Shown in pieces: positions 34,245 to 62,114 of a DNA stretch of 64,000 nt. This stretch comes from an uncultured Candidatus Babeliaceae bacterium (GTDB lineage: Bacteria; Babelota; Babeliae; Babelales; Babelaceae). The DNA is taken from NCBI GenBank assembly GCA_964549625.1, contig CAZJVA010000003.1, positions 12,967 to 76,966 on the forward strand. The letters are read 5' to 3'. The translations under genes were made by a program, and so were the position numbers. Numbering within the stretch: position 1 is the stretch's first letter; every line of letters begins with the position of its first letter. Under the pieces are notes generated by a model. The model was given only the letters and a program-made list of their open reading frames with translations. It was not told the origin of the DNA and searched no databases.

Positions 34245-35516
34245 TTAGCAGAGTAATGTTTTTAGGATGCCATTGCAGCGGATCTGTATGGCATCTTTTT
34301 CTGTTTCGCACATGTGATTATGCCAAAAATTCCACGCGTATGATTGGAGCGATGTCAGTAGTTCTGGTTCGATAAAATCAAAATAGCTTTTTTCGGTAGA
34401 AAAGCGCTGGCGTGTATGCGCATAACCCTCATCTGTTTTATAGCAAAAAACTTGATCATGTTCTTTGGTTGGGTGATCACGGTAATGAGCTATTATGGCA
34501 GGAGCAAGAATTGCTGCAGGAAGTGGTGATAGGGGAAAGTGCCGTCGACAAAAAATCGTGACATCGGGCCAGCCAAAAATCCACATTTCAAGATGACCTG
34601 GAGATTTTTCAATGGTGCGATTAGAGTTGTTTGGCCTTTGGAGGCAGTTCTTTGCGGTTAATGTTAGCTCGATTTCAATTTGTTTGAAGTTGCTTGGAAA
34701 GCTACCATTGCGTTTTTTGTGAAAGCGCCGTCGAGGAAAGGCTCCTCGCGTGGAGAAAAGATCGAGTATGCTTGCCATATCGTGTCGTGAGTAAAGGCTA
34801 TAAATATTTTTGAAGAGCGGGCTGTAGATAAAATGTTCATTTTCCACAATAACGGGTGTCCCGAGCATAATGAGTTCGTCAATCTGAAATGGTAACTCTT
34901 CGGTTGTTTTATCGCGCCAGTGTTCTAGATTTAGTGCGATGTTTGATCCATGGCTGTAGGTTACGAGGCGGACTTTTAGGTTCGGGTATTTACTCTTTTG
35001 TGTTTGAATGTATTGCGAAAGCGTGTCGAATAAAATTTTTGCGTCCTGAACACGCTGTAGTTGATTTATCATTCCTGACCAGCCAAAAGTAAGCCATTCT
35101 ATATTCCTTTGCTCTGGAAAGTAGCGATTTTGCATGATTTCGTATAAGCGCGCAAAAAGCTCTGCGGAGTTTTGCTCTTTTTTGTCTAGTTCAATTTTAC
35201 GCAAGCCGGGTAATTGGGCGGCTTGTGCCGCGTATGAATAGGGATGCTCACGAAGGGCTTCCATTAAGCGCGCATATCGGGAGCCTTCGATAGATTTTTT
35301 CATCAGGGTAATTATAGTTTCGAAGTTCATGAGTCGCTCGACTCCCAAGGTGCCATGGATAAATACCGTTACCCAAGGCTCAGTTGCTTGTGGCGTGGAG
35401 AGTTCTTTCTTGCTTGTATTTAGATTGTTTAGCTTCGAAGAAGCTTCTTTATGTAATGTGGTTACCCCTGTTGCGGTTGCTATTGCTATAATATGAAGAA
35501 TAATTTTTTTCTTCAT
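34245..35516 (-). CDS. Secreted alpha/beta-hydrolase-like protein (lipase/esterase-like)
   Basis: Signal-like N-terminus MKKKIILHIIAIATATGV. WVTVFIHGTLG has an oxyanion-region look, and VTYSHGSNIAL is a nucleophile-elbow variant of [GST]xSxG. No closer family is assigned. Confidence 0.6.
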   Translation of the reverse strand: MKKKIILHIIAIATATGVTTLHKEASSKLNNLNTSKKELSTPQATEPWVTVFIHGTLGVERLMNFETIITLMKKSIEGSRYARLMEALREHPYSYAAQAAQLPGLRKIELDKKEQNSAELFARLYEIMQNRYFPEQRNIEWLTFGWSGMINQLQRVQDAKILFDTLSQYIQTQKSKYPNLKVRLVTYSHGSNIALNLEHWRDKTTEELPFQIDELIMLGTPVIVENEHFIYSPLFKNIYSLYSRHDMASILDLFSTRGAFPRRRFHKKRNGSFPSNFKQIEIELTLTAKNCLQRPNNSNRTIEKSPGHLEMWIFGWPDVTIFCRRHFPLSPLPAAILAPAIIAHYRDHPTKEHDQVFCYKTDEGYAHTRQRFSTEKSYFDFIEPELLTSLQSYAWNFWHNHMCETEKDAIQIRCNGILKTLLC

Positions 35517-36299: not shown

Positions 36300-37484
36300 T
36301 TATTGCCCGTAGTATATTTGAATGTCGCTAAAATCGTTGTTTTTGAAATTGGCGAAAATGTTATTCAGTTGTATTTTTTTATTTTTGAATTTTTGGTTGA
36401 AGGGTTTAAAAAGTAGAGGAAACCGAATAACCATTTGTGCAATTTTGGTCTTTACGAGACTTTTTTCTTGAAGATACTGAGCAAATGTTGATGGAGATTC
36501 CGGAAGTTCGGGGCCGAGGATTTCGACTAAGTGGGCGCAGGTTTTTTTAGAGTAAAATTTTTCAATGCGCCTTAAAAAATTTTTGAGCCATTTTTTACTG
36601 ACCCAATCTTCTATAAGGTTTGGGTTGTTGAATGACAGGTCATTGAGGCAGTGATAAATAACTTCTAAACTGTAATGCTGGCATTCAACTTGATTATCAT
36701 TTGATGGTAAATCTTTGATATATTTGCCGATGTGCTTCATGATACCAGGAAGGAGGCTGGCATGTTCTTCTGGTTCAAGCTGTGATAGGAGTTCAAAATA
36801 TTGTTTATGTGTTGCTTCTTCTAAAACGCAATTTGGGGCAGTTGTAAATCCTTTGATTAGAGATTTGATTAAGTAGAGGCGATGTTGCGTCATGAGCACT
36901 GTTTCATTAGATTCTGGGCAGCATGCTTTAATGACCGCCTCTAAAATTGCTTTTTCAATAATCTCGTTTTTTTGATAGTCCGATGTGATTGTGTGCTGTG
37001 TTACAAAGTTGTAGAGCATGCGCTCCCCGAACTCTTCTTCGAGGGAGTAAAAAAGTTCACGAAGCTCTTTGGATGGCAGCGTTTTGATGGCAAGGATTAT
37101 GTTTTCCAGCTTTTTTAGTGAAAGATCTTCTAGGTTTTTGTTGCTAAGTAGCGAAAAAATAGCGTCTTTTTTGTCACGAGCATTTTCTGTTTTTTTGATG
37201 GCAGAAACAAATTCTTGAGTACCATTTTTTTCACCAAAGAACATATTAAGAAAACTTTTTTCAAGAAGATCTATTTCGTGGTAAGGGTTGTTAAGTATTT
37301 CTGTTTCTTTGTGGGGATTGTATGGGTTTTGCGGCAAAAGTGGGGCTGTTCTCTGATGGCAAGTAATATTGAGACGGCGTTTTTTGTGCGGAGGTTTTTC
37401 CTGTTCGTTACTTCCAAATATAGGTGTTATAGCGGCATTTAGGAGTAGTAGGCACGATAAAATATCTATATAAATGTGTTTCAT
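36300..37484 (-). CDS. Secreted hypothetical protein, short PPxKKRR-motif paralog
   Basis: AAAGGAG lies 6 nt upstream of ATG 37484. The N-terminus is MKHIYIDILSCLLLLNAAITPIFG followed by EKPPHKKRRLN. The C-terminal domain is shared with the upstream 873-aa gene (CQHYSLEVIYHCL..., DFSDIQI). Confidence 0.75.
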   Translation of the reverse strand: MKHIYIDILSCLLLLNAAITPIFGSNEQEKPPHKKRRLNITCHQRTAPLLPQNPYNPHKETEILNNPYHEIDLLEKSFLNMFFGEKNGTQEFVSAIKKTENARDKKDAIFSLLSNKNLEDLSLKKLENIILAIKTLPSKELRELFYSLEEEFGERMLYNFVTQHTITSDYQKNEIIEKAILEAVIKACCPESNETVLMTQHRLYLIKSLIKGFTTAPNCVLEEATHKQYFELLSQLEPEEHASLLPGIMKHIGKYIKDLPSNDNQVECQHYSLEVIYHCLNDLSFNNPNLIEDWVSKKWLKNFLRRIEKFYSKKTCAHLVEILGPELPESPSTFAQYLQEKSLVKTKIAQMVIRFPLLFKPFNQKFKNKKIQLNNIFANFKNNDFSDIQIYYGQ

Positions 37485-37498
37485 GTTAGTCTCCTTTA

Positions 37499-40120
37499 TT
37501 ACTGCGTTTTTTTGAGACATATTTGAACGTCGCTAAATGGAGCGGTGATCTGGGTTTTTTTAGCGCGAAAATATGTGCGCAGATCTGTTTGATCACGCAT
37601 GTCCTGTTGTAATTTAATAAATTTATTTCCGCAAAGTGTAAGTACGTTTTGGGCCTTGGCTTCCAGCTTTTTAAGTTTTTTAAAGTTGTCATCATAGGTG
37701 TCGGTTAGGCCGAGCTCTTCGAGGATTTGCTTTGCTCCTCCATTGATAAAAGATGAGTCGTAGAACTGTGCAAGAGCCTCATTAATTGGTTGGAGCTGGC
37801 CTGTTAGCTTGAGTTTCGTTACTAAATCTTTTATTTCGTATTGATTTTTCTTCTGCTCCAGAAAGTCAAATATAGTGTTAAGTACGTAGTGCTGATGAAT
37901 CCATTCGTCAGTATCGGGGATATGCTCTTCACTAATGAGCTTGAGACTGTCGTACAAAAGGTTCTCTACAATAAGAGATTGCTTTTCGGTAGAAAGGTTG
38001 TCTGGTATTTGTGCATAAGAATAATACTCTTCTTCAGTGAGTTCTATTTGTGGTTTTTTCAGCAGAAGGCTGGTGAGGGAGTAAAAGATCTTCGAGTGTT
38101 GCTGCTTTTGCTTTTCTTTTAACTGCTTGGTTAAGGTTGTTTTTTTGAGTGATGTTAACAGGTGTTCAACTGAAGCTTTTTGTTCTGGGGTGTTCATGTA
38201 TTTAATAAGCCGATATAGCGTCTTGGGGTTGACGGAGAGCAGTGAAATTTTTGATTGCGGGGTTAATGTTGTGAGCATGTTTACTAATTGAAGAAACGCA
38301 CCTGTGCTCAGATTTCTTATTAAGGGAGAGCTTTCGGTCTCTGATTGGCTGGTGCATCGTGGTATGTCAACGTAGATTGAAACAAGTTTTTGTAAAAGCT
38401 TGTTTTTTGTCTTTGCAGGGAGAAGCTTAATTGTTTCTAGCAAATGCGAAGCGCTAATTTCATCAAGAAGGTAACCGCCCAAAAACGAATCATTCCGTAA
38501 AATGGCCCATTGTATTTGTGGCTCTAATTGTTGAAGGCTGTTGGCAAGGTTTGGCGCAACGGAAGAAGTTTGTCTGATGTGAGGGATGACATCTTGAAAA
38601 AGCTTGCTAGCAAAGAATCGTGCCTGGTTTTGTAAAGAGAATGTGCTGATATGCTTAGCGAACTTTTTCCAAAAGGTTGAACTGAGCTTTGATGCTGTGT
38701 AGTAGGGCTCAAAAATATTGCTATTGCAATCAGTTTCATCTTGCAATAGATATTCCATTTGGTCTTCTTCGGGCATCGTAGCAATTGTTTTTAAAAATTC
38801 TATGGCGACGGCGTCATCGATGATATGGTTCCATAATGTTGTTTTTTTCAAAAGGGCGTATTTAGCAAAGTTGGTTCGTTTTTGAAGTTCTTGCAAAAAG
38901 GTAATCTGTGTTTTGGGGGAAAATTTTTGTTGAAGGCGTGAGCCTTGAGAATAAAAAATTAGATCAGAGTATGTTTTCTGCAAGCCGTTTTCTATGTGAA
39001 AGTGTGCCCCTAGTTCCATAATAAGGGGGCGCATGAGGGGTTGCTGAAGTTGTGAGATAAATGTTATCTCATTGGCTTCTTGAGTCGTATTTAATAATTC
39101 TAGCAAGTTTTTTTCATTTTTTTCCTGCTCTGCTTGATGCTGTGATGCAGGTAGCTCTTTTTGCCAGTATGTGTTGCAATCCAGGCCACGGATAAGTTCA
39201 TCAATATAGTCGGCAATTACGATACGTTTCTCAGTTTTTAGCTCATTATTTAGAAGATTTTTGTGTTGTTTGTTTGCGAGCGCGCAGAGGGTTTGGCGGC
39301 TTGTTTGATCATAGCCCGCAAGTGTTATACGTCCTATTATTTTCATAATATGAAGGTTGGTAATTTTATTATCTGTTTGAAGGACGAGGCTTTTTAGGTG
39401 GAGGAGCAGTTGGCGGCAAAATTTTTGTTTTTCCTTGATTTCTGTTCGCAAAAGGAGCAGAAATGTTTCGTTCAAAAATTGTGCTTGTTTGCGTGGCGGT
39501 AAATTTGATATTTCGGCTAAAATCAGTGCAAATTCTTCGGGTTGGCTTATTTGATTTAGGCGTGTTGCCAGCTCACTAAGTTTGTTTATTTCTATTTGAT
39601 GTGCATGAATCTTGTTTGGGTTGGTCTGCGCAGCTCTTACTTGGCATATTTGGTTTATTTCTTTTGGAAATAACGCGTAGGTAGCAGGTTGTACGAGAGA
39701 TTCATATAGTGGTTGCCATGCCGTTTGATGACTAAAATCTTCGAATATTGGTTCTAGAGCGAGCATCATAAAGACGCGTTCTTTCGGCGTGCTCTGTAGT
39801 AATTGGTTGGCAAGCCAGTTGAATATTGCGGTGTGCTTGCTCAGGGGAACGAGTTCTCTAAATTCGGCAGCAATTTCTGCAGCAAGGGTGTTGGCTTTTT
39901 TAGCGTTGTTTAATTTTTCAGTAAGCAACGCGATTTGTTGCATAGGAAGGAGTGTGCGATATTGGTTCGTTGCTGTGTCTCTTGATTTAAATTCTTCGAT
40001 AGCGTTTTCAGTGTTTTCAATTCGACGTTTTTTCTGGGGTGGTTGATTGCCGGCTGGTAAAAACGAAAAATGAGTAAAACCTATTAGGATCAGCAAAAAA
40101 AAGTTACAAAAGTTTTTCAT
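37499..40120 (-). CDS. Secreted hypothetical protein, long PPxKKRR-motif paralog
   Basis: I prefer ATG 40120 (MKNFCNFFLLILIGFTHFSFLPAG followed by NQPPQKKRRIEN); the track starts at 40252. The body is helical and repeat-like. The C-terminus carries HQHYVLNTIFDFL... and PFSDVQI. Confidence 0.75.
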   Translation of the reverse strand: MKNFCNFFLLILIGFTHFSFLPAGNQPPQKKRRIENTENAIEEFKSRDTATNQYRTLLPMQQIALLTEKLNNAKKANTLAAEIAAEFRELVPLSKHTAIFNWLANQLLQSTPKERVFMMLALEPIFEDFSHQTAWQPLYESLVQPATYALFPKEINQICQVRAAQTNPNKIHAHQIEINKLSELATRLNQISQPEEFALILAEISNLPPRKQAQFLNETFLLLLRTEIKEKQKFCRQLLLHLKSLVLQTDNKITNLHIMKIIGRITLAGYDQTSRQTLCALANKQHKNLLNNELKTEKRIVIADYIDELIRGLDCNTYWQKELPASQHQAEQEKNEKNLLELLNTTQEANEITFISQLQQPLMRPLIMELGAHFHIENGLQKTYSDLIFYSQGSRLQQKFSPKTQITFLQELQKRTNFAKYALLKKTTLWNHIIDDAVAIEFLKTIATMPEEDQMEYLLQDETDCNSNIFEPYYTASKLSSTFWKKFAKHISTFSLQNQARFFASKLFQDVIPHIRQTSSVAPNLANSLQQLEPQIQWAILRNDSFLGGYLLDEISASHLLETIKLLPAKTKNKLLQKLVSIYVDIPRCTSQSETESSPLIRNLSTGAFLQLVNMLTTLTPQSKISLLSVNPKTLYRLIKYMNTPEQKASVEHLLTSLKKTTLTKQLKEKQKQQHSKIFYSLTSLLLKKPQIELTEEEYYSYAQIPDNLSTEKQSLIVENLLYDSLKLISEEHIPDTDEWIHQHYVLNTIFDFLEQKKNQYEIKDLVTKLKLTGQLQPINEALAQFYDSSFINGGAKQILEELGLTDTYDDNFKKLKKLEAKAQNVLTLCGNKFIKLQQDMRDQTDLRTYFRAKKTQITAPFSDVQICLKKTQ

Positions 40121-40203: not shown

Positions 40204-41280
40204 CTACAGAAGGGGGCGCTGCTTTTGTATTTGCTTTTTCGAATAACGCCAAAGAGTATTGTGGTTGGAAAGTTTTTGTAAGACAAATTGACGGTCGTAT
40301 TCTCTTATTACTGCTTGTTCGTGGGCTTCTGCGAGAGCTATGGGATAGCCTTTTCCTTTACTCATTTGATCAGTAATCCATTGCATGCAGGCGTGTAGAG
40401 TTGATGGTTCTTTTGCGATCCATGATGGCACTTCGATTCGTCCGATTTCTTCGTTGTGATTGAGATAAACAAAATACGGGTGCAGCCTTTCGGGATATAG
40501 CCTGCTTATTGGTGCAGAAGTTTTGAATACGGGGGTGTAGTTCATATTAGGGAGCGTCTTTTGTAGCACTTCTAAATCGGTGTAGCCGTAGCAGGTTGTT
40601 TTTAGATTTGGGTTTTTGGCGACGATAAGGTCGATAAGGTCTCGACTTTTAGGTGCACTGATATAACTGCAATAGAAAGTCATATGATGCGAAATTTCTT
40701 GAAGGGCATGTAGATATTCGTAGAGAAAGTAGTCGGCATGTGGTGCGGGATTTTCTGGGGTTCCCAGGTGCCAAAATATTAGGGAACCATCAAAGACAAT
40801 AAGGTTGGGTTTTTGTTCTGCAATGGTGCGGGCGTATTTAAATTCATGGAGTGATCGCAGGGCGTCTGTAGCGCTTTCGCTGAGTGCCTCTTTTTGTAGG
40901 TGGGGCGGTAGGTCTTGCCGGGTGTAAATAATCGGATGGGATCCTAGCAAAGCAGTGCTTTTGGTTTCGCCATATGCAAATCCTGCATAACCAATATTAA
41001 TCAGTGCGGCGTGAACGCCAAAGTGACGGTCTGGATAGATTTGTGATCCATCAATAGCATAGATAGTGTACGGCTTGCTGGCTGGCGCGCAGGTGGTAAA
41101 TCCGTTGAGTGGTCCGTCCCACGTGGCAATAGGTTGTTTGGTCTCTGAAAAATTTTTATAGGTTGCGGTTTGGATGGAGCGCCAAGCGGTTAATACTTCG
41201 TTACATGTTTCTTGAAACCAAGCGTCTTCGTTTTTAAGGGCTTGAGATATTTTTTGTTCTAGCGCAAGGCGGTCAAGCAT
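40204..41280 (-). CDS. NurA-domain-like nuclease (candidate)
   Basis: YAIDGSQIYPD, LIVFDGSLIFW and the C-terminal KGKGYPIALAEAHEQAVI match my memory of the NurA (PF09376) pattern: DGS, DGsL and GYPy.L..A...A. The start is ATG 41280 or 41307, and it overlaps the stop of the upstream SufU-like gene. Confidence 0.5.
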   Translation of the reverse strand: MLDRLALEQKISQALKNEDAWFQETCNEVLTAWRSIQTATYKNFSETKQPIATWDGPLNGFTTCAPASKPYTIYAIDGSQIYPDRHFGVHAALINIGYAGFAYGETKSTALLGSHPIIYTRQDLPPHLQKEALSESATDALRSLHEFKYARTIAEQKPNLIVFDGSLIFWHLGTPENPAPHADYFLYEYLHALQEISHHMTFYCSYISAPKSRDLIDLIVAKNPNLKTTCYGYTDLEVLQKTLPNMNYTPVFKTSAPISRLYPERLHPYFVYLNHNEEIGRIEVPSWIAKEPSTLHACMQWITDQMSKGKGYPIALAEAHEQAVIREYDRQFVLQKLSNHNTLWRYSKKQIQKQRPLL

Positions 41281-41653
41281 GGGCAGATAACCCTTCTTTA
41301 AGGCCATTGAGAATGAAAACTAAAAGCGCAAATCGGCTTGGGCCAACTTCTAAAGGAAGAATCGTTTGGATCTCTTTGTCAGTTAATTGGAGGATATCCG
41401 CTATGTTTTTTCCTTCAGTATATTGGCAGAGAAGCTCTGCAAAAATCTGCCCTAACATTGAGCCATTTCCGCTAAAGGCGAGCTCCTTGATCATTCCATC
41501 TTCGATGACGCCACTAAAAGTTACCTGATCCCCGCATGCAGGGCTTTTGGCTTCTGCGGTCATGTTGGCATTTGAAATTGATTTTCGATGGGGTGCGTTT
41601 TTGTAGAGTTCTGCATATGTATCGCCATATAGCTTGGCATTTGCTTCAGGCAT
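41273..41653 (-). CDS. SufU/IscU-like protein lacking two of the three cluster-ligand cysteines
   Basis: YKNAPHRKSI...SPACGDQVTF...IKELAFSGNGSMLG...EGKNIADI aligns to SufU (YKNPRN...NPTCGD...FEGEGCSIS...). The GCSIS Cys is replaced (GNGSMLG), and the C-terminal R.KC..L Cys is replaced (SRFALLV). Confidence 0.6.
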   Translation of the reverse strand: MPEANAKLYGDTYAELYKNAPHRKSISNANMTAEAKSPACGDQVTFSGVIEDGMIKELAFSGNGSMLGQIFAELLCQYTEGKNIADILQLTDKEIQTILPLEVGPSRFALLVFILNGLKEGLSAHA

Positions 41654-42098: not shown

Positions 42099-42962
42099 TT
42101 ATTCTTGGATGGTCTTTGTTAGGGTTGTTTTGAACTTATCAATATCGAGGAAGTTCATCGCATAGGGGTTATGGGTACGCAGCTCTGCGTCGTTTTTGGT
42201 GAAGGCCTCGAGTATTTTTTTGCAAAAAGCATGGAATGAAGCCTGTGTTAGCGAAAAAAATGGTTCATTGGGAACATCCGTATTAAAAAAGTTTTCTTTG
42301 CGTGGCGCGGTGCAAAAGATATTCATATTTACATCGACTAGCATGTAGCGATTGGCAAGTTCGCAATGATCCATGTATTCGTAATATTCTTGTGCATTAT
42401 TTTCGTTGCATTCAGCTCCAAATGAAAATCCAACTTCTTTTATTTGGTTTGGATCTTTTATATGTAGTTTTTCAACGAGATACTTCTTTATTTTTTTTAT
42501 CGATTTTATTTGGTTCATTTTTATTCTTTGGGCCCATTCGGGGGCTACGGTTGTGTTGGCAAATATTATGCCTGAGATTGGGGAGTTAGTAGCAGAATTT
42601 TTTATTTTTAGGACTTCTCGAGCTATTTTGTTAAGTTGTTCTATTTTATTGGCAAGACTGTAGTGAAATATTATTGTTTTTTGACCATTGGTAAGGGCAA
42701 TGAGATGGCATGGATAAAGTGGGCCGACGAGAGCTTTTTTTGTTGATCCTTTTTCTAGCACCATATATCGGGATTCTAAGAGTAGTGTTGTATCTTTTTT
42801 TTCTTGTTCGTCTAATCCTTTGTAGGGAAATGGCAGGACGATAGTTTTTTCTGTGCCGGGCTTTAGAATTGAGGGGAATGTATGGGTATAAAATTGCCCA
42901 GAAAATACCGCTAATGGACAAAGTGAAAAATAAAATACTACGGCGAGTTTAAAAGTTGACAT
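42099..42962 (-). CDS. Secreted Cys/His-motif ORFan family, paralog 1 of 4
   Basis: Signal-like N-terminus MSTFKLAVVFYFSLCPLAVFSG. Family motifs are VLPFPYKGLDEQEKK, YMVLEKG, ALVGPLYPCHLIAL, IIFH and CTAPRKENFF. Confidence 0.8.
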   Translation of the reverse strand: MSTFKLAVVFYFSLCPLAVFSGQFYTHTFPSILKPGTEKTIVLPFPYKGLDEQEKKDTTLLLESRYMVLEKGSTKKALVGPLYPCHLIALTNGQKTIIFHYSLANKIEQLNKIAREVLKIKNSATNSPISGIIFANTTVAPEWAQRIKMNQIKSIKKIKKYLVEKLHIKDPNQIKEVGFSFGAECNENNAQEYYEYMDHCELANRYMLVDVNMNIFCTAPRKENFFNTDVPNEPFFSLTQASFHAFCKKILEAFTKNDAELRTHNPYAMNFLDIDKFKTTLTKTIQE

Positions 42963-43123
42963 AACTGCTCCCAGCGTGAGGACTTTTTAATTTATATAGT
43001 CTTATAATATTTTTAATTTTCAACTTGCCAAGTTTTTTCAGCATAGATAAAGATTTCTTCGAGAATTTTTATGTACAACCAGCTCTCGACTAAGGCGAGT
43101 CAAGGGCTATTTGTTTTGCGCGT

Positions 43124-43636
43124 TTAGTTGGCAGGTTTCTCAAGTACGCAAAGGTTTCCGAAGCATTGTTTTTCTTTAAAGCCATGTTTTTTATAGAGCG
43201 CATATGCACCTGTATTTTCAACCTTGTTTGTATTTAGTCGGACTGTGGAATTTTTTAGGGAGGAGTTTAGCACATGGTTCAGGAGCTGGGTGCCAATACC
43301 TTGTGTTCGACAATTGTTCCGTACGAAAAGGGTCTCAATATAAGCATTTACTGGGGTTAGTTTGATAAATGCAATCATACCCACAACAATGGAGTCTTTG
43401 ATTGCAACGATTATTTGATATTTCTCAAACAGAGCTTCTATGTAGCGCGCTATTCGCTCGTTGCAAATAGTTGGGTCTTTGAAAAGGCTTTCCTTGGCTT
43501 CGGCCGTTTGGTGTAATGTGATACATTGAGGTAAATGGGTGTCTGTGTTCGCTGGAGTAGTTTTTACTGCAGTATGGATTATGTTTTTTGTACCCAATAA
43601 TAGAATGAACGCGGTTAATAAAAGGTTTTTTTTCAT
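43124..43636 (-). CDS. GNAT-family N-acetyltransferase with an N-terminal signal peptide
   Basis: N-terminus is MKKNLLLTAFILLLGTKNIIHTA. GNAT motif A is VRNNCRTQGIGTQLLNHVL, and the C-terminal motif is GAYALYKKHGFK. Confidence 0.85.
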   Translation of the reverse strand: MKKNLLLTAFILLLGTKNIIHTAVKTTPANTDTHLPQCITLHQTAEAKESLFKDPTICNERIARYIEALFEKYQIIVAIKDSIVVGMIAFIKLTPVNAYIETLFVRNNCRTQGIGTQLLNHVLNSSLKNSTVRLNTNKVENTGAYALYKKHGFKEKQCFGNLCVLEKPAN

Positions 43637-43645
43637 GTTTTTTTC

Positions 43646-44458
43646 TTATGCTAACTCGATAAAGTCGTCATGGTTATAGTGAGTAAAAGGTGAGGTGAAT
43701 TTGCTTTTTATTTCGGCTTTTTTGTAATTGCCCATAGCATCTTGAGTTTTCCTGCGGCGTTCTTCTATGTGCAGCTCGTTAAAAGTAGTCTTATTGAAGA
43801 TGTTTTCATGCATAAAACATATGCTCATTGGTTTAAATTCAGTGTTGAAGAAGACGCCAAGTTCAGCATATTCGTATTCGCCGAGTTCGTAATCTTGGTA
43901 CGGCGAGTGATATATTTTTGCGGCGATTTGTTTGCGATCGGCAATTTTGAAAAACGAAACGATGCAGTCTTTGATAGCTTTAACCTTTTCTGATTGTTTT
44001 TGACCTGTATAGGCTTTTGGGAAGATCCATTCAAACCGTGGGTCACATGCATTAGTGAAGATGAGGCCTGTAATATCCTTAGAATTTTGTATCTTGAGCT
44101 TTGCTTGTGCGTGTTCGCATAGCTTCTTAATGCTATTTGAGTCATGCAGGTGAAAAAAAACAGCGGTCCCTGTTTGGGTGTTTTTAAGTGCAACAAGTTT
44201 GCATGGTTGCAATGGACCAATAGCAACGGTTTTCTGAGAGTCTTTGCTTAAAGAGGTGAAGTGATATTCGGGTATAATAACGATGTTTTTTCGTTCTTCA
44301 TTAGATAAGTGTTTGTATTGAAATGGCAAAACAACGATTTTTTTCGATTGGTTGGGGAATAAGGTGAGTTTGTTCTGGCAAGTATAGAGCCTTGTTGCTG
44401 TGCAGGTTATTAATAAACAGCTGCTTGCGATTTTAAAGAAAGGGTGTTTGGTATTCAT
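43646..44458 (-). CDS. Secreted Cys/His-motif ORFan family, paralog 2 of 4
   Basis: Family motifs are VLPFQYKHLSNEERK, VAIGPLQPCKLVAL, VFFH, ITGLIF and ICFMHENIF. The N-terminus is hydrophobic. Confidence 0.8.
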   Translation of the reverse strand: MNTKHPFFKIASSCLLITCTATRLYTCQNKLTLFPNQSKKIVVLPFQYKHLSNEERKNIVIIPEYHFTSLSKDSQKTVAIGPLQPCKLVALKNTQTGTAVFFHLHDSNSIKKLCEHAQAKLKIQNSKDITGLIFTNACDPRFEWIFPKAYTGQKQSEKVKAIKDCIVSFFKIADRKQIAAKIYHSPYQDYELGEYEYAELGVFFNTEFKPMSICFMHENIFNKTTFNELHIEERRRKTQDAMGNYKKAEIKSKFTSPFTHYNHDDFIELA

Positions 44459-44494
44459 GATAATTTTCTCTTTATGATGTAAAATTGTTTGTTT

Positions 44495-45361
44495 TTATTT
44501 GATTTCTACGAATCCTGAGTATTCGTAATATTCGTACGCATAAGGATATTCTTGTTGAACTTTTTTAATGTTTTCTCGCTTGTTTAGTTCTTCTCGAAAT
44601 TTGCGTAGGCGTTTCTTTCGCGGTAATTTTTCAAGTCCAGGAATTTGAAATGCATTTTCATGCATAGGGCAGCAGCATGTTTTGTTTAAGTCTTTGTCTA
44701 CGATTATGAACGATTGGGCAAATGCATAATCTTTCAAGCTGGCATTATTGATGACTGGCATTATTTCGCCGACAATTTGGTCATGATCTTTTTCTGTAGC
44801 TGTTTGTTGAATTCCAAAAAATTTAACTATTTTGTTCCCAATGAATTTTAGTTTATCTCGCTGTGTTGCGTGCGTGCTTTGGTAGGGAAAGGGTCTTTCG
44901 GAGAGTTCTTTGTTAATAGCCTCGATATACCGGGAGGTTGCGGCGTAAAGAAAGCATTCTATATTGCTTGGACTTTTGATAGGGGCGAGTGCTTTTTCTG
45001 CTGTTTGACACAATTTAGTTGTATTGTTGCCATCGCTTTTATGAAAGATAGCAACTTTGCCATTCTCCTTGTTTTTGATAATAACAAGCTTGCAGGGACT
45101 GAGTGGGCCGACCAGTGCTTTTTTTGTGCAATTTTTTTCTAGAACGGTGTAATGGCATTCGGGAATGAAAATGAGATTGCCTTTTTCGTTTTCTGTTAAA
45201 GTCTGGTATTTGAAGGGTAAGCGAACCTCGGTTGGCGCCGTCCCTGGTTTTAGGACGAGGTGCTCGCTTATTCCTGCAAAAATTGACGCACCAACAAGTG
45301 CGGCCGATGCGCCGATAATAAGGCGAATGCTGATAATCGGTTGTTTCATAATCATACTCAT
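44495..45361 (-). CDS. Secreted Cys/His-motif ORFan family, paralog 3 of 4
   Basis: Family motifs are RLPFKYQTLTENEKG, YTVLEKN, ALVGPLSPCKLVII, AIFH and CCCPMHENAF, plus a basic PRKKRLRK stretch. I prefer ATG 45361/45349 over the track start 45433, which would overlap paralog 4. Confidence 0.8.
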   Translation of the reverse strand: MSMIMKQPIISIRLIIGASAALVGASIFAGISEHLVLKPGTAPTEVRLPFKYQTLTENEKGNLIFIPECHYTVLEKNCTKKALVGPLSPCKLVIIKNKENGKVAIFHKSDGNNTTKLCQTAEKALAPIKSPSNIECFLYAATSRYIEAINKELSERPFPYQSTHATQRDKLKFIGNKIVKFFGIQQTATEKDHDQIVGEIMPVINNASLKDYAFAQSFIIVDKDLNKTCCCPMHENAFQIPGLEKLPRKKRLRKFREELNKRENIKKVQQEYPYAYEYYEYSGFVEIK

Positions 45362-45392
45362 GGTCTTTGAGTGTACTTTACGTGTTTTCTTG

Positions 45393-46214
45393 TCATGTAT
45401 TGTTTTCAGCAGGAAAGAAACCGAGTTCTTCATAAGTCGGTCCTTTTATTTTGAAGTGTCTTAGTATTTTTTCGGGGGAACATTTTTTGAAGTATTTATT
45501 CATATAAATTTCTTGTTGCTTTTCGGGGGAAGATGTTTCTAGATGTGGGATATTAAAAATGTTTTCTTGAATCGGGCAGATACTGTTTTTGTTGAGTTTA
45601 TTGTCAATAAGAACATAGAGATGTCCCAGGAAAGCGTAAGGATCAAAAAGTTCATTCTTTGTGTGAAATATTTGTGCTTGAATTTGTTCATGGTCCTTAA
45701 TTTTGAACCAATTAACTAGCACATTTTTTATGTAGTTAATTTTTAGTTTTTGCGTTGGATGAAAGCCTAGAATTTTATGCCAGGCATATTTTTTATCCAC
45801 CTCAGGCGATGATACGCTGAATATAAAGCCACGAATGTCTTCTGGTTTAATGTTTTTTCGGAAATTATCCTGCGCTATTGCGCAAAGTTTTTCTGAACTG
45901 TTTCCATCATTTTTGTGGAAAATGATGGCCTTATTAGTTTTGCTATCTTGAAGTGCAACAAGCTTGCAGGGCTGTAGGGGACCGACAATCGCGCACTCTG
46001 TTTTTCCTTCCTCGAGGACCATATAGCGTAGTTCAGGAACATACATTAATTTGCTTTTTTCTTGCGCTGTTAATGAACGATAGGCAAACGGCAATAAGAT
46101 TTCTTTTGTGCTTGTATTTTCGGGTGGGATTGATAGGTGATATGGGACGCCGCTATGACTTTGCTTGCACCATACTATACTGAGCAATAGAAAGAGTGTT
46201 CGGGCATTTTTCAT
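45393..46214 (-). CDS. Secreted Cys/His-motif ORFan family, paralog 4 of 4
   Basis: N-terminus is MKNARTLFLLLSIVWC. Family motifs are LLPFAYRSLTAQEKS, YMVLEEG, AIVGPLQPCKLVAL, IIFH, IRGFIF and ICPIQENIF. Confidence 0.8.
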   Translation of the reverse strand: MKNARTLFLLLSIVWCKQSHSGVPYHLSIPPENTSTKEILLPFAYRSLTAQEKSKLMYVPELRYMVLEEGKTECAIVGPLQPCKLVALQDSKTNKAIIFHKNDGNSSEKLCAIAQDNFRKNIKPEDIRGFIFSVSSPEVDKKYAWHKILGFHPTQKLKINYIKNVLVNWFKIKDHEQIQAQIFHTKNELFDPYAFLGHLYVLIDNKLNKNSICPIQENIFNIPHLETSSPEKQQEIYMNKYFKKCSPEKILRHFKIKGPTYEELGFFPAENNT

Positions 46215-48621: not shown

Positions 48622-50388
48622 TTATCCGAGTTTTTGAACTTTTTTGCGTGTAATGACTGCTTTTATTGCATCAATTATGGTTGGTGCAAGTTCGTGGGCT
48701 GCACGTTCCGTTAGCCCCGTTAAACGATCGATCTGTGCAGGGGTATAGGCAAAGTTTCCTGTGTTAATAAATCCGCCGCCGTTGCGTAGAAGTTCCTGGG
48801 GGTCAAAGGTCGGATCGTAATCATCATTTTTAGCAAGCGGCACGTAGATGATGATAGGTGCGGAAGAATCAGGTCCGTCATAAAAAATGGAGTATTTTTC
48901 TGTTATTGCTTGGTAATAGTCTATGGTTGGGAATAATTTGTTGGCTGCTCGGGCACTATCTTCTAATTTATGTAGGTTTGGCGCATTGAAACAATCGGCG
49001 CTTGCTTCAACAATAATGATTATATCGATGGTTCTTTCATCTCTTAAAACAGGTTCGATTGGTATATTTTGTGCGGCACCGGCATCAATATGAATATGGA
49101 ATTGAGAGTGTGGATCGCCGCCGGCTTGAAGGTTGCGTACTGGATTGCGGATGAACGCTGGAAAAAGTTGAAATTCTCCGAGCGGTGTTTGCATGATTGC
49201 GGTCTGAAGTGGTTTGAACAGAAAGCTTGGCCTGAGCTCTTGGGCAATTAATGGAAAAATTTGTTTGAGTGCAAGGGTGAACGCTGATCCCCAAATGCCC
49301 ATGAGATACCCTAGTGAAAGTGATGGATGCTTGGTAGTTGATTTGCCACACTTGAATTTGCGCCCAAAACCAAACGTTGGACAGGCGCCATTAATGCCAT
49401 AATGCATAACTTCAAACGGGGTGAATTCTACCTCATGAAATTTAGTATTTGCCTCGTAGGGGTGCACAGACATTCCGATAGGAAGCGGGACGGTGCCCTG
49501 GCTTACATAGTCGGCAAATGAGGCAAGCGTTGTTTGGGCATAGTGTCCCTTGGTGTGATCCTCAAAAAGTTCCAGGCCAATGAGTAAGCCGTAAAGATCA
49601 ATGATAGTAGGTATTTCGTGGTAAGCAAGTCTTCGGATAAATGTCTCAGCAATGGTACCCATAAATGCGGCGAGATTTTGTCCGCCTTTAGTGAGGGCTT
49701 CATCAAGGAGTGTTGAAGCGACGCGTTTTTTAAATCCTGGGTAAAAATCAAGGTACGGTTTTTTTGAGGCGAGCCATGAGCCAATAAGCCAGGTTGATCC
49801 AGATACGCCACCAAGGTAGTGGACGGTGTCAAGGAGTGAGGTGTCGGCTAGGCCTTGGCAGAAGCCTGCAGTTGACAGCATGGCACGAAAACCTCCGCCG
49901 CTTCCAATAACCGCAATGCGTGGAATAAGGTCTTCGTCAACTTCTTCTTGTAGGTATTCTTCGATGACTTTTTTTGCATATTTGTTGCGTGCTTCTAAAT
50001 ATTTTTGTTCCGCTTGTGGAAGTGGTCGATTACCTTCCCATACGCGTCGAATGCGGGCCTCGGACCATTTGGTAGGTTCGCTATTGAGGAGCAGATGGTA
50101 TAAAAATGCAAGGAAAAAACGAGGCACCGGATATTGTGCGCCGTCGATGGTGAGGTTACCTTCGAGTGATGATGATGTTCCAGAGCGTGTTCCTGGGGTA
50201 AAGGAAAATGAGATATCATCGTAGTGTCGGGAGAGCGTCTCTACGATTTCTTGGTCGCTTACTTCGGGCACCTGGATAAAGTTTTCAATTTCTTGGTCGG
50301 TTATTGCGCGTGAGGTATTGGAAATAGAGAGGGCTAACGCCATGATTATGATCAGGGGTGTTAGTGAAAGTGCTTCTTTAAAAGACAT
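48622..50388 (-). CDS. Secreted cPLA2-type (PLA2_B, group IV-like) phospholipase/lysophospholipase, copy A
   Basis: Signal-like N-terminus LTPLIIIMALALSISNTSRA. VIGSGGGFRAMLSTAG...YLGGVSGSTW matches cPLA2-alpha GSGGGFRAM...GLSGSTW (Arg200/Ser228 region, from memory). IIDLYGLLIG, VPLPIGMSVH, EVEFTPFEV, LGYLMGIWGSAF and HIDAGAAQNIP (catalytic Asp region) are also present. Confidence 0.9.
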   Translation of the reverse strand: MSFKEALSLTPLIIIMALALSISNTSRAITDQEIENFIQVPEVSDQEIVETLSRHYDDISFSFTPGTRSGTSSSLEGNLTIDGAQYPVPRFFLAFLYHLLLNSEPTKWSEARIRRVWEGNRPLPQAEQKYLEARNKYAKKVIEEYLQEEVDEDLIPRIAVIGSGGGFRAMLSTAGFCQGLADTSLLDTVHYLGGVSGSTWLIGSWLASKKPYLDFYPGFKKRVASTLLDEALTKGGQNLAAFMGTIAETFIRRLAYHEIPTIIDLYGLLIGLELFEDHTKGHYAQTTLASFADYVSQGTVPLPIGMSVHPYEANTKFHEVEFTPFEVMHYGINGACPTFGFGRKFKCGKSTTKHPSLSLGYLMGIWGSAFTLALKQIFPLIAQELRPSFLFKPLQTAIMQTPLGEFQLFPAFIRNPVRNLQAGGDPHSQFHIHIDAGAAQNIPIEPVLRDERTIDIIIIVEASADCFNAPNLHKLEDSARAANKLFPTIDYYQAITEKYSIFYDGPDSSAPIIIYVPLAKNDDYDPTFDPQELLRNGGGFINTGNFAYTPAQIDRLTGLTERAAHELAPTIIDAIKAVITRKKVQKLG

Positions 50389-50400
50389 ACTGTTTCCTTT

Positions 50401-52107
50401 TTAGCTGTTTTGTGGGCGGATGCCTCGTTCCTTTTTATCAATAGCTGCTAATAGCTTCTGTATAAGATCATGGTGCATTTGTGTTGCCGCTGTTTCGAAT
50501 AAGCCTGCTAATAGGTTGTATTGTTCCCTTGTGTAGAAAAAGTTCATCATGTGCAAAAAGTTGTTTTGGTAGGGATAGATCAGCGGCCATGGATCAAATT
50601 CTTCAGAGTAGCTTGGGTTTTTAACGAGAGGAACATAAAATACGATTGGGGCTGCGGAGTCTGGACCATCATCGAATACAGAAAAGGGGTTGCTGCGCGC
50701 GCGTTCGTAGTCGATGCGGGGGAATGGTCTATTGTTGGCGCGTGCCACATTTTCAAGTATTTGAAGGCTTCCAGACCAATTAACATTACTTCCGCTTTCG
50801 ACCAGTATAATAACATCAATGTTGCGATCAGGGTTGAGTGTTGGAAGCATCGGCGCATCGTAATCAATTCCAGCATCGATGTAGGCATGGAATCGAGTGT
50901 TTTTGTCTGGCGAAGTATTCATGCCTCGTGTGTAATTGCGGACAAATGCAGGGAAGAGGCGACTTTCGCCTAAGCAAGATTTTTCGATCAAATCAAAAAT
51001 CGGCATGAAGAATGGTTTAGGTTTTAGAAAATCTTTAATCGTTGGAATGTAAGTCTTTACCTTTTGAGAAAATGCAGAACCACATATGCCCATAAGGTAT
51101 CCAATAGTTTGTGCCGGATGCCTGCTTAGTGATTTTCCATTATAAAAGTCTCGACCAAACCCAAATCCTGGGCAGCCAGCATCGAGTCCGTAGTTGATAA
51201 CTTCGAAAGGGTTGAATTCAACTTCGTCGCCTTTACGGTTTTCGTGTTGAACAATTGCGGTTCCTATTGGCAGGGGTACGGTTCCTGTTGCTACGTGGGG
51301 TTTTATGCTTGATAAGGTGGTCCACGCATAATTCTTTTTTGATTTGGTTTCGAATAGGTGGAGCCCGAGCATGAGCCCATAGAGATCAATACTTGTTGGT
51401 ATTTCGTGAAAGGCCAGGCGTCGGAGAAATGCTTCGGCAATTGAGCCTGAGAAAGAGGCAATATTGAGCGCAAATTCTTTGGTCTCAACACCAAGTATTC
51501 CCTTGAGTACGCGTTCTACAAATTCGGGATAAAATTCTGTATAAGATTTTTTAGATACCATCCAGGGATAGAGAAGCCATGTTGAACCGGATACTCCGCC
51601 AATCATATGGACGGCGTCCAGGAGGCCTAGCTGGTTGAGTTTGTTAGTAAAGCCAGCGAAGGATATCATTGCGCGAAAACCACCGCCACTGCTGATGAGC
51701 GCTACTCGTGGTGTGTTTTTGGTCGCAACGGGTTTTCCGAGAACTTTTTCGAGCGCCTGGGCAGTGAATATATCTCGTTTGTTCCAAAACTCTTTTTCTT
51801 CTGTGCTGATACTATGGTTTTTTCCAAAGTGCCGTACGCGAGCGGTTTGGTGCTTATTGGGGTCTTTATCAAGGATGATGTTATATAGGATACCAAGCAA
51901 AAATCGGTTCAGAGGAAGTGCTAGGTCACATTCAGGAATGGGGAGGGTGGCTTGTAGTTCTGGTGTTCGATGGGTATTTTCTTCAAAAACAATTTCAGGA
52001 AAATGTCTTTGAATAGTATTTTTTAATTCTTCATCAGACGGTGTTTGTGCAATGAGATAGGGAAAGAAGAAAAATAGTCCAAGAATTAGCCTGGATGAAT
52101 GCTTCAT
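50401..52107 (-). CDS. Secreted cPLA2-type phospholipase/lysophospholipase, copy B
   Basis: N-terminus is MKHSSRLILGLFFFFPYLIAQ. It is collinear with copy A: LISSGGGFRAMISFAG, MIGGVSGSTW, IDLYGLMLG, VPLPIGTAIV, EVEFNPFEV, IGYLMGICGSAF and YIDAGIDYDAP. Confidence 0.9.
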   Translation of the reverse strand: MKHSSRLILGLFFFFPYLIAQTPSDEELKNTIQRHFPEIVFEENTHRTPELQATLPIPECDLALPLNRFLLGILYNIILDKDPNKHQTARVRHFGKNHSISTEEKEFWNKRDIFTAQALEKVLGKPVATKNTPRVALISSGGGFRAMISFAGFTNKLNQLGLLDAVHMIGGVSGSTWLLYPWMVSKKSYTEFYPEFVERVLKGILGVETKEFALNIASFSGSIAEAFLRRLAFHEIPTSIDLYGLMLGLHLFETKSKKNYAWTTLSSIKPHVATGTVPLPIGTAIVQHENRKGDEVEFNPFEVINYGLDAGCPGFGFGRDFYNGKSLSRHPAQTIGYLMGICGSAFSQKVKTYIPTIKDFLKPKPFFMPIFDLIEKSCLGESRLFPAFVRNYTRGMNTSPDKNTRFHAYIDAGIDYDAPMLPTLNPDRNIDVIILVESGSNVNWSGSLQILENVARANNRPFPRIDYERARSNPFSVFDDGPDSAAPIVFYVPLVKNPSYSEEFDPWPLIYPYQNNFLHMMNFFYTREQYNLLAGLFETAATQMHHDLIQKLLAAIDKKERGIRPQNS

Positions 52108-60365: not shown

Positions 60366-62114
60366 ATGTTGTTTGCTGAGTTGGCGCAGCGGTTTTGCGC
60401 TATTGAGCGTGAGTCCTCTCGACTTACGATTACTAAGATGCTTGCTGATCTCTTTCTCAATCTGACGCCCGAAGAGGCCCGTGTTGTCGCCTATATGTGT
60501 TTGGGAGAAATGCGACCAGCTTTTTTGGGTACAAAGTTTAATTTTGCCGCCAAGGGTATGGAGTATGTCGCTGCTCGGCTGTTACATGTTTCTTTAGAGG
60601 AGGTTGCCGACCGCATGGCCACGGCTGGTGATTGGGGTGATCTTCTTGAGCTGGGAGATTGGGAATCGGCTGGTAGCGCCTCGATTATGTCGTTATATGA
60701 ATCTTTGGAGCGCTTTGAGGCGATATCTGGTGTTGGTTCGTTTGATGAAAAGATTAGCTTTTTGGTTCAGCTTTTAAAATCGGTACCGCCATCTTCTGCG
60801 CGATATGTAGTGCGCATTGTGATGCAAAATTTACGCTTAGGTTTTTCCGATATGACCCTGCTAGACGCATTTTCTTGGATGGTGCAGCAGGATAAAAAGG
60901 CAAAGCCTTCTATTGAATCGGCATATAACCTTGTTGCAGATATTGGGCGTATCGCGTACTTAGTGGTGCATGGCGGTCTTGCTACACTCAAAGACATTGA
61001 GCTTGAGGTTGGGGTTCCCGTTCGTCCTGCTGCGGCGGAGCGAATGATGACGGCACAGGATATCATTCAAAAGATAGGTCCTTGTAGCGCTCAGCCTAAG
61101 TATGATGGATTTCGTCTGCAGGTGCACATGATTACATGTGAGGATGGAACCAAGAAGATCTGGTTTTTTTCGCGTAACTTGTTGGATATGTCTCATATGT
61201 TTCCAGATTTACACCAAGCAATTTTGTGTTTGCCCTTTAAGTCGCTGGTTTGTGAAGGAGAGGCTTTAGCTTTTGATGAGGTGAACGGAACGTATTTGCC
61301 ATTTCAAGAGACCGTAAAACGTCGTCGGAAGCATCAGATTGATTTGTTTGCGCAGGATAAGCCTTTGCGTCTTGTACTGTTTGACCTACTGTATAAAGAT
61401 GGAGATTCGTATCTAGATATGCCTTTGAGGGAGCGTTATGCGGCTCTTAAGGAGTGCATTATTTCGTGTGAAAGTTCTGTTCTGCAAGTAGCTGAGCAGG
61501 TTTCTTGCGAAACGCCGGCGTCACTGGAAAGTTATTTCCTCTCGTGTATCGGCGATGGCCTTGAAGGAATTATGGCCAAGCGACCAGAAGGAAGGTATCA
61601 GCCGGGGAAGCGGAATTTTAACTGGATAAAGTTGAAGCGCATTGAGCGGGGTATTCTTGATGATACTATTGATGCGGTGATACTGGGGTATTATTATGGC
61701 GCAGGTCGGCGTTCTGGGTTTGGGATAGGGGCCTTATTGGTGGGAGTATACAATCAAGAGCAAGATCGGTTTGAATCTATTGCAAAAATAGGTACGGGGT
61801 TAAGTGATTTGGAATGGGTTGCAATACGAGAAGCGTGTGATCAAGAGCGAATTGGAAGTCAGCCAGTTGATGTTGTGGTTATGCCGGCGCTCGCCCCCGA
61901 TGTTTGGGTTGCTCCGCGAATTGTTGTTGTTGTTCGAGCTGATGAGATTACTAAATCGCCTGTTCATGCAGCAGGTCGTACAGAAGAGACGGCTGGCTTA
62001 GCGCTAAGATTTCCTCGGTTTATGTCTTTGCGTCGGGATAAGTCTCCGGTTGATGCGACAACGGTTGAAGAGGTCGTGGGCATGTATGAACAGCAAAAGC
62101 GTGTTTTATTCTAA
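60366..62114 (+). CDS. lig: ATP-dependent DNA ligase, archaeal/eukaryotic Lig1-like three-domain type
   Basis: The N-terminal DNA-binding domain starts FAELAQRFCAIERESSRLTITKMLADLF. Motif I is KYDGFRLQVH. Also present are FSRN, CEGEALAF, LFDLLY, EGIMAKR, NWIKLK and an OB-domain tail. Confidence 0.9.
   Translation: MLFAELAQRFCAIERESSRLTITKMLADLFLNLTPEEARVVAYMCLGEMRPAFLGTKFNFAAKGMEYVAARLLHVSLEEVADRMATAGDWGDLLELGDWESAGSASIMSLYESLERFEAISGVGSFDEKISFLVQLLKSVPPSSARYVVRIVMQNLRLGFSDMTLLDAFSWMVQQDKKAKPSIESAYNLVADIGRIAYLVVHGGLATLKDIELEVGVPVRPAAAERMMTAQDIIQKIGPCSAQPKYDGFRLQVHMITCEDGTKKIWFFSRNLLDMSHMFPDLHQAILCLPFKSLVCEGEALAFDEVNGTYLPFQETVKRRRKHQIDLFAQDKPLRLVLFDLLYKDGDSYLDMPLRERYAALKECIISCESSVLQVAEQVSCETPASLESYFLSCIGDGLEGIMAKRPEGRYQPGKRNFNWIKLKRIERGILDDTIDAVILGYYYGAGRRSGFGIGALLVGVYNQEQDRFESIAKIGTGLSDLEWVAIREACDQERIGSQPVDVVVMPALAPDVWVAPRIVVVVRADEITKSPVHAAGRTEETAGLALRFPRFMSLRRDKSPVDATTVEEVVGMYEQQKRVLF

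Follow-up and report, generated by a model that had tools for sequence, protein, structure and literature searches.

Nucleomodulins, the nucleus-targeted effectors of intracellular bacteria, bear a terminal basic motif resembling a nuclear localisation signal (NLS), those with ankyrin repeats have bodies built as repeat scaffolds and those whose delivery route is cited here leave the bacterium through type I, type III or type IV secretion systems (PMC7819608). In the Dependentiae, which are widespread and almost entirely uncultured protist parasites, host manipulation is known only from gene inventories (ankyrin repeats, signal peptides). Cultured representatives are obligate intracellular parasites of amoebae and flagellates, type II is the sole secretion system detected, and a role in the host cytoplasm is predicted for proteins with signal peptides (PMC4378268, PMC4776705, PMC6561590); the signal-peptide ankyrin-repeat proteins of Babela and Chromulinavorax are predicted to be secreted there (PMC4378268, PMC6561590). 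The present analysis concerns a stretch of 64,000 nucleotides (hereafter the window) of contig CAZJVA010000003.1, from an uncultured Candidatus Babeliaceae bacterium (GCA_964549625.1), and within it two adjacent genes, here called long and short after their products of 873 and 394 amino acids (aa), both of which carry a P-x-K-K-R-R-hydrophobic motif just past a putative secretion leader. Our favoured reading, to which we attach moderate confidence, is that the two proteins are effectors secreted through Sec and type II that carry a classical NLS like that of simian virus 40 (SV40), and judged by their sequences they are good candidates for delivery from the bacterium into the nucleus of the host.

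The original prediction had described two open reading frames (ORFs) with leaders and a shared PPxKKRR[IL], and all of these were recovered on the minus strand. The N-terminus of the long protein is MKNFCNFFLLILIGFTHFSFLPAGNQPPQKKRRIEN, with KKRR at residues 30-33, that of the short protein is MKHIYIDILSCLLLLNAAITPIFGSNEQEKPPHKKRRLN, with KKRR at residues 34-37, and a six-frame scan of the window, taking in ORFs of 80 aa or more, found this tetrapeptide in these two proteins alone, once in each and as PPxKKRR after the leader. Loss of the motif in orthologs had been named beforehand as the observation that would speak against the prediction; P-x-K-K-R-R-[ILVF] proved to be kept in nine of nine distinct relatives, from at least four genomes. 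The long-form segments read NQPPQKKRRIEN, NEPPQKKRRIEN, NEPPQKKRRIES, NEPPHKKRRVLP, NEPAQKKRRIES and ESPQKKRRLTE, the short-form ones EKPPHKKRRLN, EKPPRKKRRFN and EEPPHKKRRIA, with [NE]-[EK]-P-P-[QH]-K-K-R-R-[ILV] as the consensus. In the alignment of six long-form sequences (873 residues, 25-65% identity) K30-K31-R32-R33 is the sole run of four invariant columns and no further invariant column lies between L10 and Y54, the N-terminal region around the motif being barely alignable among relatives. The Pro and Arg codons of the motif vary at the third position through all four bases (CCA/CCC/CCT/CCG; CGT/CGA/CGG/CGC) across seven genes, and selection therefore acts on the peptide rather than on DNA or RNA; an element at the nucleic-acid level (a slippery A-run or an RNA structure) was rejected, since the synonymous positions vary freely. 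The distance from the hydrophobic core of the leader to the start of the motif is 6-11 residues in eight of the nine proteins and 33 residues in P0009.

The pairing of leader and motif appears to be a property of this family. Neither in the rest of the window nor in about 5 kb of extra flank does an ORF of 80 aa or more contain KKRR, and those without it include at least five proteins with hydrophobic leaders. A DNA-pattern scan of viral contigs for PP[QHR]KKRR gave 17 matches, all noise and none in an N-terminal signal-peptide context, and the same scan of metagenome contigs gave at least 121 occurrences at 120 or more loci, none with a leader among the matches listed, which consist of noise and of ORFs like ribosomal protein uL23 (PPRKKRRVGKF). 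Given these leaderless occurrences the combination is specific to the long/short family among the matches listed, the metagenome scan serving as a null control that leaves room for other families with the motif. A literature search with the exact peptides (PPQKKRR and relatives) turned up no paper.

Three minor observations concern similar peptides elsewhere. Among the metagenome matches listed, the commonest genuine coding context of PPRKKRRV is a conserved ORF of about 110 aa with the pattern ...VNT..PPRKKRRVGKF.G[YF]K.., resembling uL23 and present at L026, L027, L031, L032, L043 and some 15 other metagenome loci. When PDB sequences were searched with the family profile, the best match was not significant (E=0.3); it covers residues 156-192 of 6gum_B, a chain named SAE2, whose tail SEPASKKRRLSETE is matched and whose SSGSEPASKKRRLSETE aligns with the motif region, and serves only to illustrate that nearly the same peptide occurs in another protein. 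Within ORFs of at least 150 aa of the window, the only other match to P-x(0-2)-[KR]4 is LPRKKRLRKF, a C-terminal basic cluster in a member of the adjacent four-gene array described below.

The leaders were analysed with our own n/h/c heuristic on nine N-termini. In all nine distinct members the n-region has charge +1, the hydrophobic core spans 15-23 aa and small residues (A/G/S) occupy positions -1/-3 of candidate cleavage sites at about residues 19-26 (among them IFG↓S, TAG↓N, IVA↓S and TSA↓F); the long leader starts with MK, has its core from F4 to F18 and offers LPA↓G or AG↓N as candidate sites. By this heuristic every member has the features of a Sec type I signal peptide that could be cleaved (positively charged n-region, hydrophobic h-region, small residues at -3/-1), and we infer that the leader is removed. 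A twin-arginine translocation (Tat) signal, in which S/T-R-R-x-F-L-K precedes the hydrophobic core, was rejected, as the n-regions are MK, MKN or MYRPFFQ and RR comes 6-33 residues past the core, and so was a lipobox of the form L-[AS]-[GA]-C, since a Cys after the leader is not conserved and occurs only in P0006 (FLVCASS), in poor lipobox context.

Past the leader, the motif falls in a linker predicted to be disordered, to which AlphaFold2 (AF2) assigns a predicted local distance difference test (pLDDT) score of less than 50 (long protein, residues 14-36; short protein, residues 1-68). Acidic or polar residues (E/N/Q/D) always separate the basic cluster from the putative site of cleavage. The model of the long protein, built on the six-sequence alignment, has a mean pLDDT of 78.4 and a predicted template modelling score of 0.64 and is nearly all helix, with two small beta hairpins; that of the short protein has a mean pLDDT of 58, its core (residues 70-320) reaching about 70-80. 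Foldseek searches against the PDB with the long model returned mainly generic HEAT/ARM-type solenoids (SF3B1, CRM1, VPS35L, MMS19, CAND1, importins, PR65; E=2e-4 to 6e-3, TM-scores of only 0.1-0.2), and those with the short model returned designed armadillo repeats, importin-alpha and the PP2A B56 subunit (E>=4e-3); over the two proteins TM-scores are only 0.1-0.3 and sequence identity is 9-15%. Pfam and NCBIfam scans assigned neither protein to a family and gave no HEAT or ARM repeat profile; the predicted repeats are irregular. For both proteins these models predict an alpha-solenoid scaffold preceded by a flexible tail at the N-terminus. Recurring L-[TP]-P-x-x-Q helix starts had raised the possibility of a repeat of the transcription activator-like effector (TALE) kind, which was rejected because their spacing is irregular (25-52 aa), the AF2 model is HEAT/ARM-like and none of 50 Foldseek hits was a TALE protein.

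In the favoured reading the long and short proteins would be exported by Sec and their leader cleaved, leaving the motif within the first 5-15 residues of the flexible tail; they would leave the bacterium through type II secretion, or perhaps in vesicles, and enter the host cytosol, where P-x-KKRR-[ILV] would be read by importin-alpha as a classical monopartite NLS, and the importin-alpha-bound solenoid, a protein-protein interaction scaffold, would be carried into the host nucleus. KKRR fits, in nine of nine members, the classical NLS consensus K-K/R-X-K/R (PMC7819608). In human MSH5, KKRR by itself has been shown experimentally to be a monopartite NLS, if a weak one (PMC2887964), and the putative NLS KKRRKK of yeast Swi4 has been studied as a fusion to four GFP copies (PMC2904269). 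An NLS is required by proteins above roughly 40-60 kDa (PMC13311002), a range that the mature long protein (~98 kDa) exceeds. We also count in favour a neighbourhood with further eukaryote-type or secreted genes, namely two PLA2_B genes and a four-gene signal-peptide array. The nucleus-targeted-effector reading already offered by the original prediction is supported in part, by motif conservation, fit to the consensus, predicted disorder, the size of the long protein and the phylum setting; the description of the two proteins as paralogs stands at the profile level only (see below). Two of the alternatives discussed below, a membrane anchor and a protease site, had been named there as well.

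The comparison with described systems shows both likeness and distance. The NLS of SV40 large T, PKKKRKV, a standard example of a classical NLS (PMC13311002), shares with the motif four proline-led basic residues followed by an aliphatic one, the register P-x-K-K-R-[KR]-[VI] and a disordered setting; its first basic position is, however, Q, H or R in the long/short family, whose motif lies in a bacterial protein directly past a secretion leader and whose K-K-R-R order is more rigid than the consensus in the available portion of PMC7819608 requires. With nucleomodulins the pair would share origin in an intracellular bacterium, the terminal basic motif and a repeat-scaffold body; in place of the secretion systems cited above its only plausible route is Sec plus type II (PMC4378268), and Pfam, NCBIfam, PDB sequence and Foldseek searches found no sequence or specific fold relationship to known nucleomodulins. 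MmpE (Rv2577) of Mycobacterium tuberculosis likewise combines an N-terminal export signal and basic 'NLS' motifs in one protein (PMC12999176), but its 'NLS1' lies inside the Tat signal peptide, whereas the motif considered here follows the hydrophobic core and the n-region has no twin arginine; moreover, MmpE is an enzyme and the long and short proteins are predicted solenoids. HEAT/ARM scaffolds (PP2A PR65, CAND1, karyopherin-beta, SF3B1, importin-alpha) resemble them in the long predicted array of paired helices, and differ in that the long and short proteins have no Pfam HEAT/ARM match, irregular repeats and two small predicted beta hairpins. Closest in setting are the ankyrin-repeat effectors of Babela and Chromulinavorax, from the same phylum and with a Sec leader joined to a eukaryote-facing repeat scaffold (PMC4378268, PMC6561590); these form an expanded ankyrin family, in contrast to a tiny family with an orphan solenoid, and a conserved NLS-like motif is not reported for them (PMC4378268, PMC4776705, PMC6561590).

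Several points weigh against nuclear targeting. Basic NLS-like clusters are common false positives in bacterial proteomes, NLStradamus flagging roughly 90-200 proteins per genome (PMC13311002), and the supposed 'NLS1' of MmpE is required for its secretion (PMC12999176). For a protein released by type II secretion, some route across any host vacuolar membrane would be needed, and Foldseek yields no functional clue past 'solenoid'. The K-K-R-R order is absolute, with no K/R swaps in about six independent lineages, a rigidity stricter than expected for importin-alpha binding, which hints at a more specific partner, e.g., a protease. Finally, the 18 residues past the hydrophobic core carry a net charge of 0 to +4, and a net positive flank past a hydrophobic segment also fits an N-out/C-in membrane anchor.

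This last point leads to the alternative that survives best, although we hold it unlikely: the leader would be a stable, uncleaved N-terminal membrane anchor with the basic cluster as a positive-inside topology determinant, and the solenoid would stay on the cytoplasmic or periplasmic side of the bacterial inner membrane, never reaching the host. Cores of 15-23 residues are long enough to span a membrane, and an n-region of only +1 is outweighed by the flank. A topology determinant, on the other hand, needs charge and not a fixed P-x-K-K-R-R-hydrophobic; all nine leaders have small -1/-3 residues and a polar or helix-breaking core end, as cleavable signal peptides do, and the E/N/Q/D residues that always precede the basic cluster likewise count against an anchor.

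The rigidity of the motif bears on the next alternative, a dibasic processing site in which KKRR plus the hydrophobic residue would be cut by a host or bacterial protease of the kexin/furin or omptin type, removing a short pro-segment or freeing the protein from an uncleaved leader. An invariant K-K-R-R-hydrophobic in nine of nine members is more typical of a protease subsite than of an NLS, its position is fixed a few residues past the leader in eight of nine, and the stretch is predicted to be disordered and accessible. We nevertheless judge such a site quite improbable. The furin consensus is R-X-K/R-R and that of kexin K/R-R; RR is present here, but P4 is Lys where furin has Arg. A cut would take only about 6-12 residues off the mature N-terminus, to no obvious purpose, an effector in the host cytosol would not meet Golgi convertases, the motif of P0009 lies about 33 residues past the leader, and no protease gene adjoins the locus.

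It is very doubtful that the basic cluster is a polyanion-binding patch for acidic lipids, glycans, nucleic acid or the bacterium's own envelope, by which a secreted solenoid would be tethered to a membrane or surface (e.g., as an adhesin, or by targeting to the vacuole membrane) without nuclear import. A short exposed basic cluster flanked by a hydrophobic residue and carried at the tip of a flexible tail would suit such a function, as would the mildly basic character of the mature proteins (isoelectric points 8.0-8.7), but electrostatic patches normally tolerate K/R shuffling and changes of length, whereas here four positions, the Pro and the hydrophobic residue are fixed, and four charges alone make a weak lipid anchor. 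To a further idea we give an equally low probability, namely that the motif is a dedicated host-targeting or processing signal of the Dependentiae clade, read by a specific protease or translocation step and possibly doubling as an importin-alpha ligand; as a bacterial counterpart of PEXEL, TEXEL or RxLR it may owe its excess rigidity to a second reader. The least likely explanation of all, a signal for export or host targeting that is specific to the lineage, follows the signal peptide and is recognised by a bacterial machine, in the manner of Plasmodium PEXEL, Toxoplasma TEXEL, oomycete RxLR or the Bacteroidota lipoprotein export signal, agrees with the near-constant position by the leader, the strict conservation, the acidic flanks and the RRL of two members, which resembles TEXEL RRLxx, but is disfavoured because it should recur in unrelated cargo and KKRR is missing from the other ORFs of 80 aa or more in the window and its flanks, at least five of which have hydrophobic leaders, while PEXEL and TEXEL depend on aspartyl proteases of the eukaryotic endoplasmic reticulum and Golgi and the absence of Cys at +1 argues against a lipoprotein signal. 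A PEXEL/TEXEL motif proper, defined as RxLxE/Q/D or RRLxx some 20 residues past a signal peptide and shared by many unrelated exported proteins, was rejected: RRL occurs in only two of nine members, RxLx[EQD] in none, and no other ORF of that size in the window or flanks shares the motif.

Returning to nuclear delivery, an SV40-like tag on a putatively secreted solenoid offers a concrete hypothesis of how Dependentiae could reach the host nucleus via Sec and type II. No link of Dependentiae to nuclear-targeted effectors was found in the literature searched; if the reading is true, the pair would add an orphan effector family and be the first nucleomodulin from Dependentiae in that literature. 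As candidates, the long and short proteins would form a new orphan family that fits the known concept of the NLS-bearing nucleomodulin and is unusual in route (Sec/type II) and in the placement of the motif directly past the leader. Should the motif be a processing or export signal instead, the outcome would be more unusual.

The family is small. In an exhaustive HMMER profile search over 1.84 billion representative proteins the long form turned up in five clusters (P0002, P0006, P0007, P0008, P0009), a word-indexed search found three proteins of the short form, including that of the window, and a homolog search with a four-sequence alignment gave, among the best 8000 candidates, only two proteins, both already known. 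The nearest named relative of the short protein is from candidate division TM6 bacterium GW2011_GWF2_43_17, and among species-representative genomes the long gene occurs at one locus, in Candidatus Dependentiae bacterium UBA12474, which is probably of the same lineage as the relative L001; these relatives place the window in a Dependentiae (TM6) bacterium. Gene order is kept in relatives: NifU-like, NurA, long, short, a convergent LOG-family gene, a 422-aa signal-peptide protein and a PALP enzyme. In GCA_964598055.1, from a more distant member of the Dependentiae (L003:1051-7631, L004:98-6678), three motif-bearing genes encode 879, 421 and 857 aa, and the second long copy shows that duplication at the locus itself occurs in this family; a 4-nt overlap of the 879-aa and 421-aa genes points to translational coupling. 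In Logan run SRR5011273, the proteins encoded by contigs L144 and L145 have the same sequences as those from the two ends of the window and the same run holds the divergent L004, hence two related Dependentiae co-occur in that sample.

The start of the long gene at 40120 agrees with ortholog starts, and longer upstream starts (TTG 40252, ATG 37520) were rejected because orthologs begin at MK... leaders. The ribosome-binding site AAAGGAG had been placed 15 nt past the long stop; the element is present, but it is the short ATG that lies beyond a gap, of 14 nt from the long TAA, and AAAGGAG is inside this gap, 6 nt 5' of the ATG. No terminator-like site was found between the two genes in a promoter/terminator scan that overall gave fewer matches than shuffled controls, and long-short adjacency is retained in three other genomes. 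Because of the short gap, the missing terminator-like site and the kept adjacency, co-transcription of the pair is plausible. The mature proteins measure ~98 kDa (long) and ~43 kDa (short), with isoelectric points of 8.7 and 8.0.

As for the proposed paralogy and shared C-terminal domain, pairwise BLASTP did not bear them out, giving nothing significant between long and short and as its best match the motif itself (E=0.32), whereas profile comparison did. Over the C-terminal ~180 aa (long 681-869 vs short 208-392) hhalign gave a score of 38.8 (E=2.7e-4 to 5.4e-4), against 15.1 +/- 2.2 for column-shuffled and 21.2 +/- 5.0 (maximum 34.7) for block-shuffled controls. The N-terminal 150-180 residues, leader and motif included, scored 50.9 (E=1.5e-5), and the N-terminal part without them was marginal (20.5 vs 13.4 +/- 2.1). 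These profile alignments support a common C-terminal domain of about 180 aa and a paralogy at the profile level only, and the short form looks like the long form minus its central solenoid. The near-terminal FSD[IV]QI, rightly noted as common to both window proteins, has degenerated in relatives (PFCDIDI, AFADTQI, LNDVEF), and three long members lack it. Coordinates of the pair and of neighbouring features are collected in Table 1.

Table 1. Features of the long/short locus and its surroundings (positions in the window)
Feature	Position	Strand	Remarks
Long gene, 873 aa	37499..40120	minus	leader, disordered linker with motif and HEAT/ARM-like alpha-solenoid of ~830 aa (predicted)
Long putative Sec signal peptide, residues 1-24	40049..40120	minus	n/h/c heuristic; AF2 helix 2-18, then disorder
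Long motif PPQKKRRI, residues 27-34	40019..40042	minus	K30 K31 R32 R33 invariant; pLDDT <50
Long C-terminal shared domain, residues ~681-869	37514..38080	minus	hhalign; includes EWIHQHYVLN..FDFLE
AAAGGAG, Shine-Dalgarno-like	37491..37497	minus	between long stop (37499-37501) and short ATG (37484); read from sequence
Short gene, 394 aa	36300..37484	minus	leader, ~45-aa disordered linker with motif and helical-repeat core (predicted)
Short putative Sec signal peptide, residues 1-24	37413..37484	minus	MK..., IFG↓S; n/h/c heuristic
Short motif PPHKKRRL, residues 31-38	37371..37394	minus	P31 P32 K34 K35 R36 R37 invariant in short-family alignment
Short C-terminal domain, residues ~208-392	36309..36863	minus	homologous to long C-terminus at profile level; ECQHYSLEVIY...
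423-aa protein with signal-peptide-like leader	34245-35516	minus	syntenic in L001 and L002 (422, 429 aa)
NurA-domain nuclease gene	40204-41307	minus	E=7.5e-25; directly upstream of long gene
NifU-like gene	41273-41653	minus	overlapped by NurA gene
Four tandem paralogs	42099-46214	minus	287, 270, 312 and 273 aa; also L001:7333-8148
LPRKKRLRKF	44609-44623	minus	C-terminal basic cluster inside array ORF 44495-45433
PLA2_B gene 1	48622-50388	minus	PF01735
PLA2_B gene 2	50401-52107	minus	PF01735
582-aa protein	60366-62114	plus	ATP-dependent DNA ligase domains

Among the neighbours, the four tandem paralogs share 27-31% identity and most have hydrophobic leaders. Their invariant elements are LPFxY, GPLxPCxL and FH...N, in which the Cys and His could be a catalytic pair, and with no Pfam or NCBIfam match they would make up, judging from their leaders, a second orphan secreted-protein family beside the long/short locus. 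The two tandem lysophospholipase genes match the PLA2_B catalytic domain with E=7e-27 and 3e-21 and the pair is kept in the relative L001; this domain is known mainly from eukaryotic cytosolic PLA2/PLB enzymes. The 423-aa protein has no Pfam or NCBIfam match, and its pattern FIHGTLG...YSHGSNIAL suggests an alpha/beta-hydrolase or lipase.

For the NurA gene, the Pfam-annotated genes up to about 10 kb away on either side included no HerA partner. The 582-aa protein has all three ATP-dependent DNA ligase domains (PF04675, PF01068, PF04679), as assigned by precomputed annotation of the identical gene in L143. Over the whole window (1-64000) the GC skew, (G-C)/(G+C), is very strong, uniform and unusually large, at about +0.21 on the plus strand, with an AT skew of about -0.18 and some two thirds of coding bases on the C-rich strand. 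The GC skew is the same in genes of the plus strand (0.214, n=15) and of the minus strand (0.219, n=29), and the bias is strand-specific rather than gene-specific.

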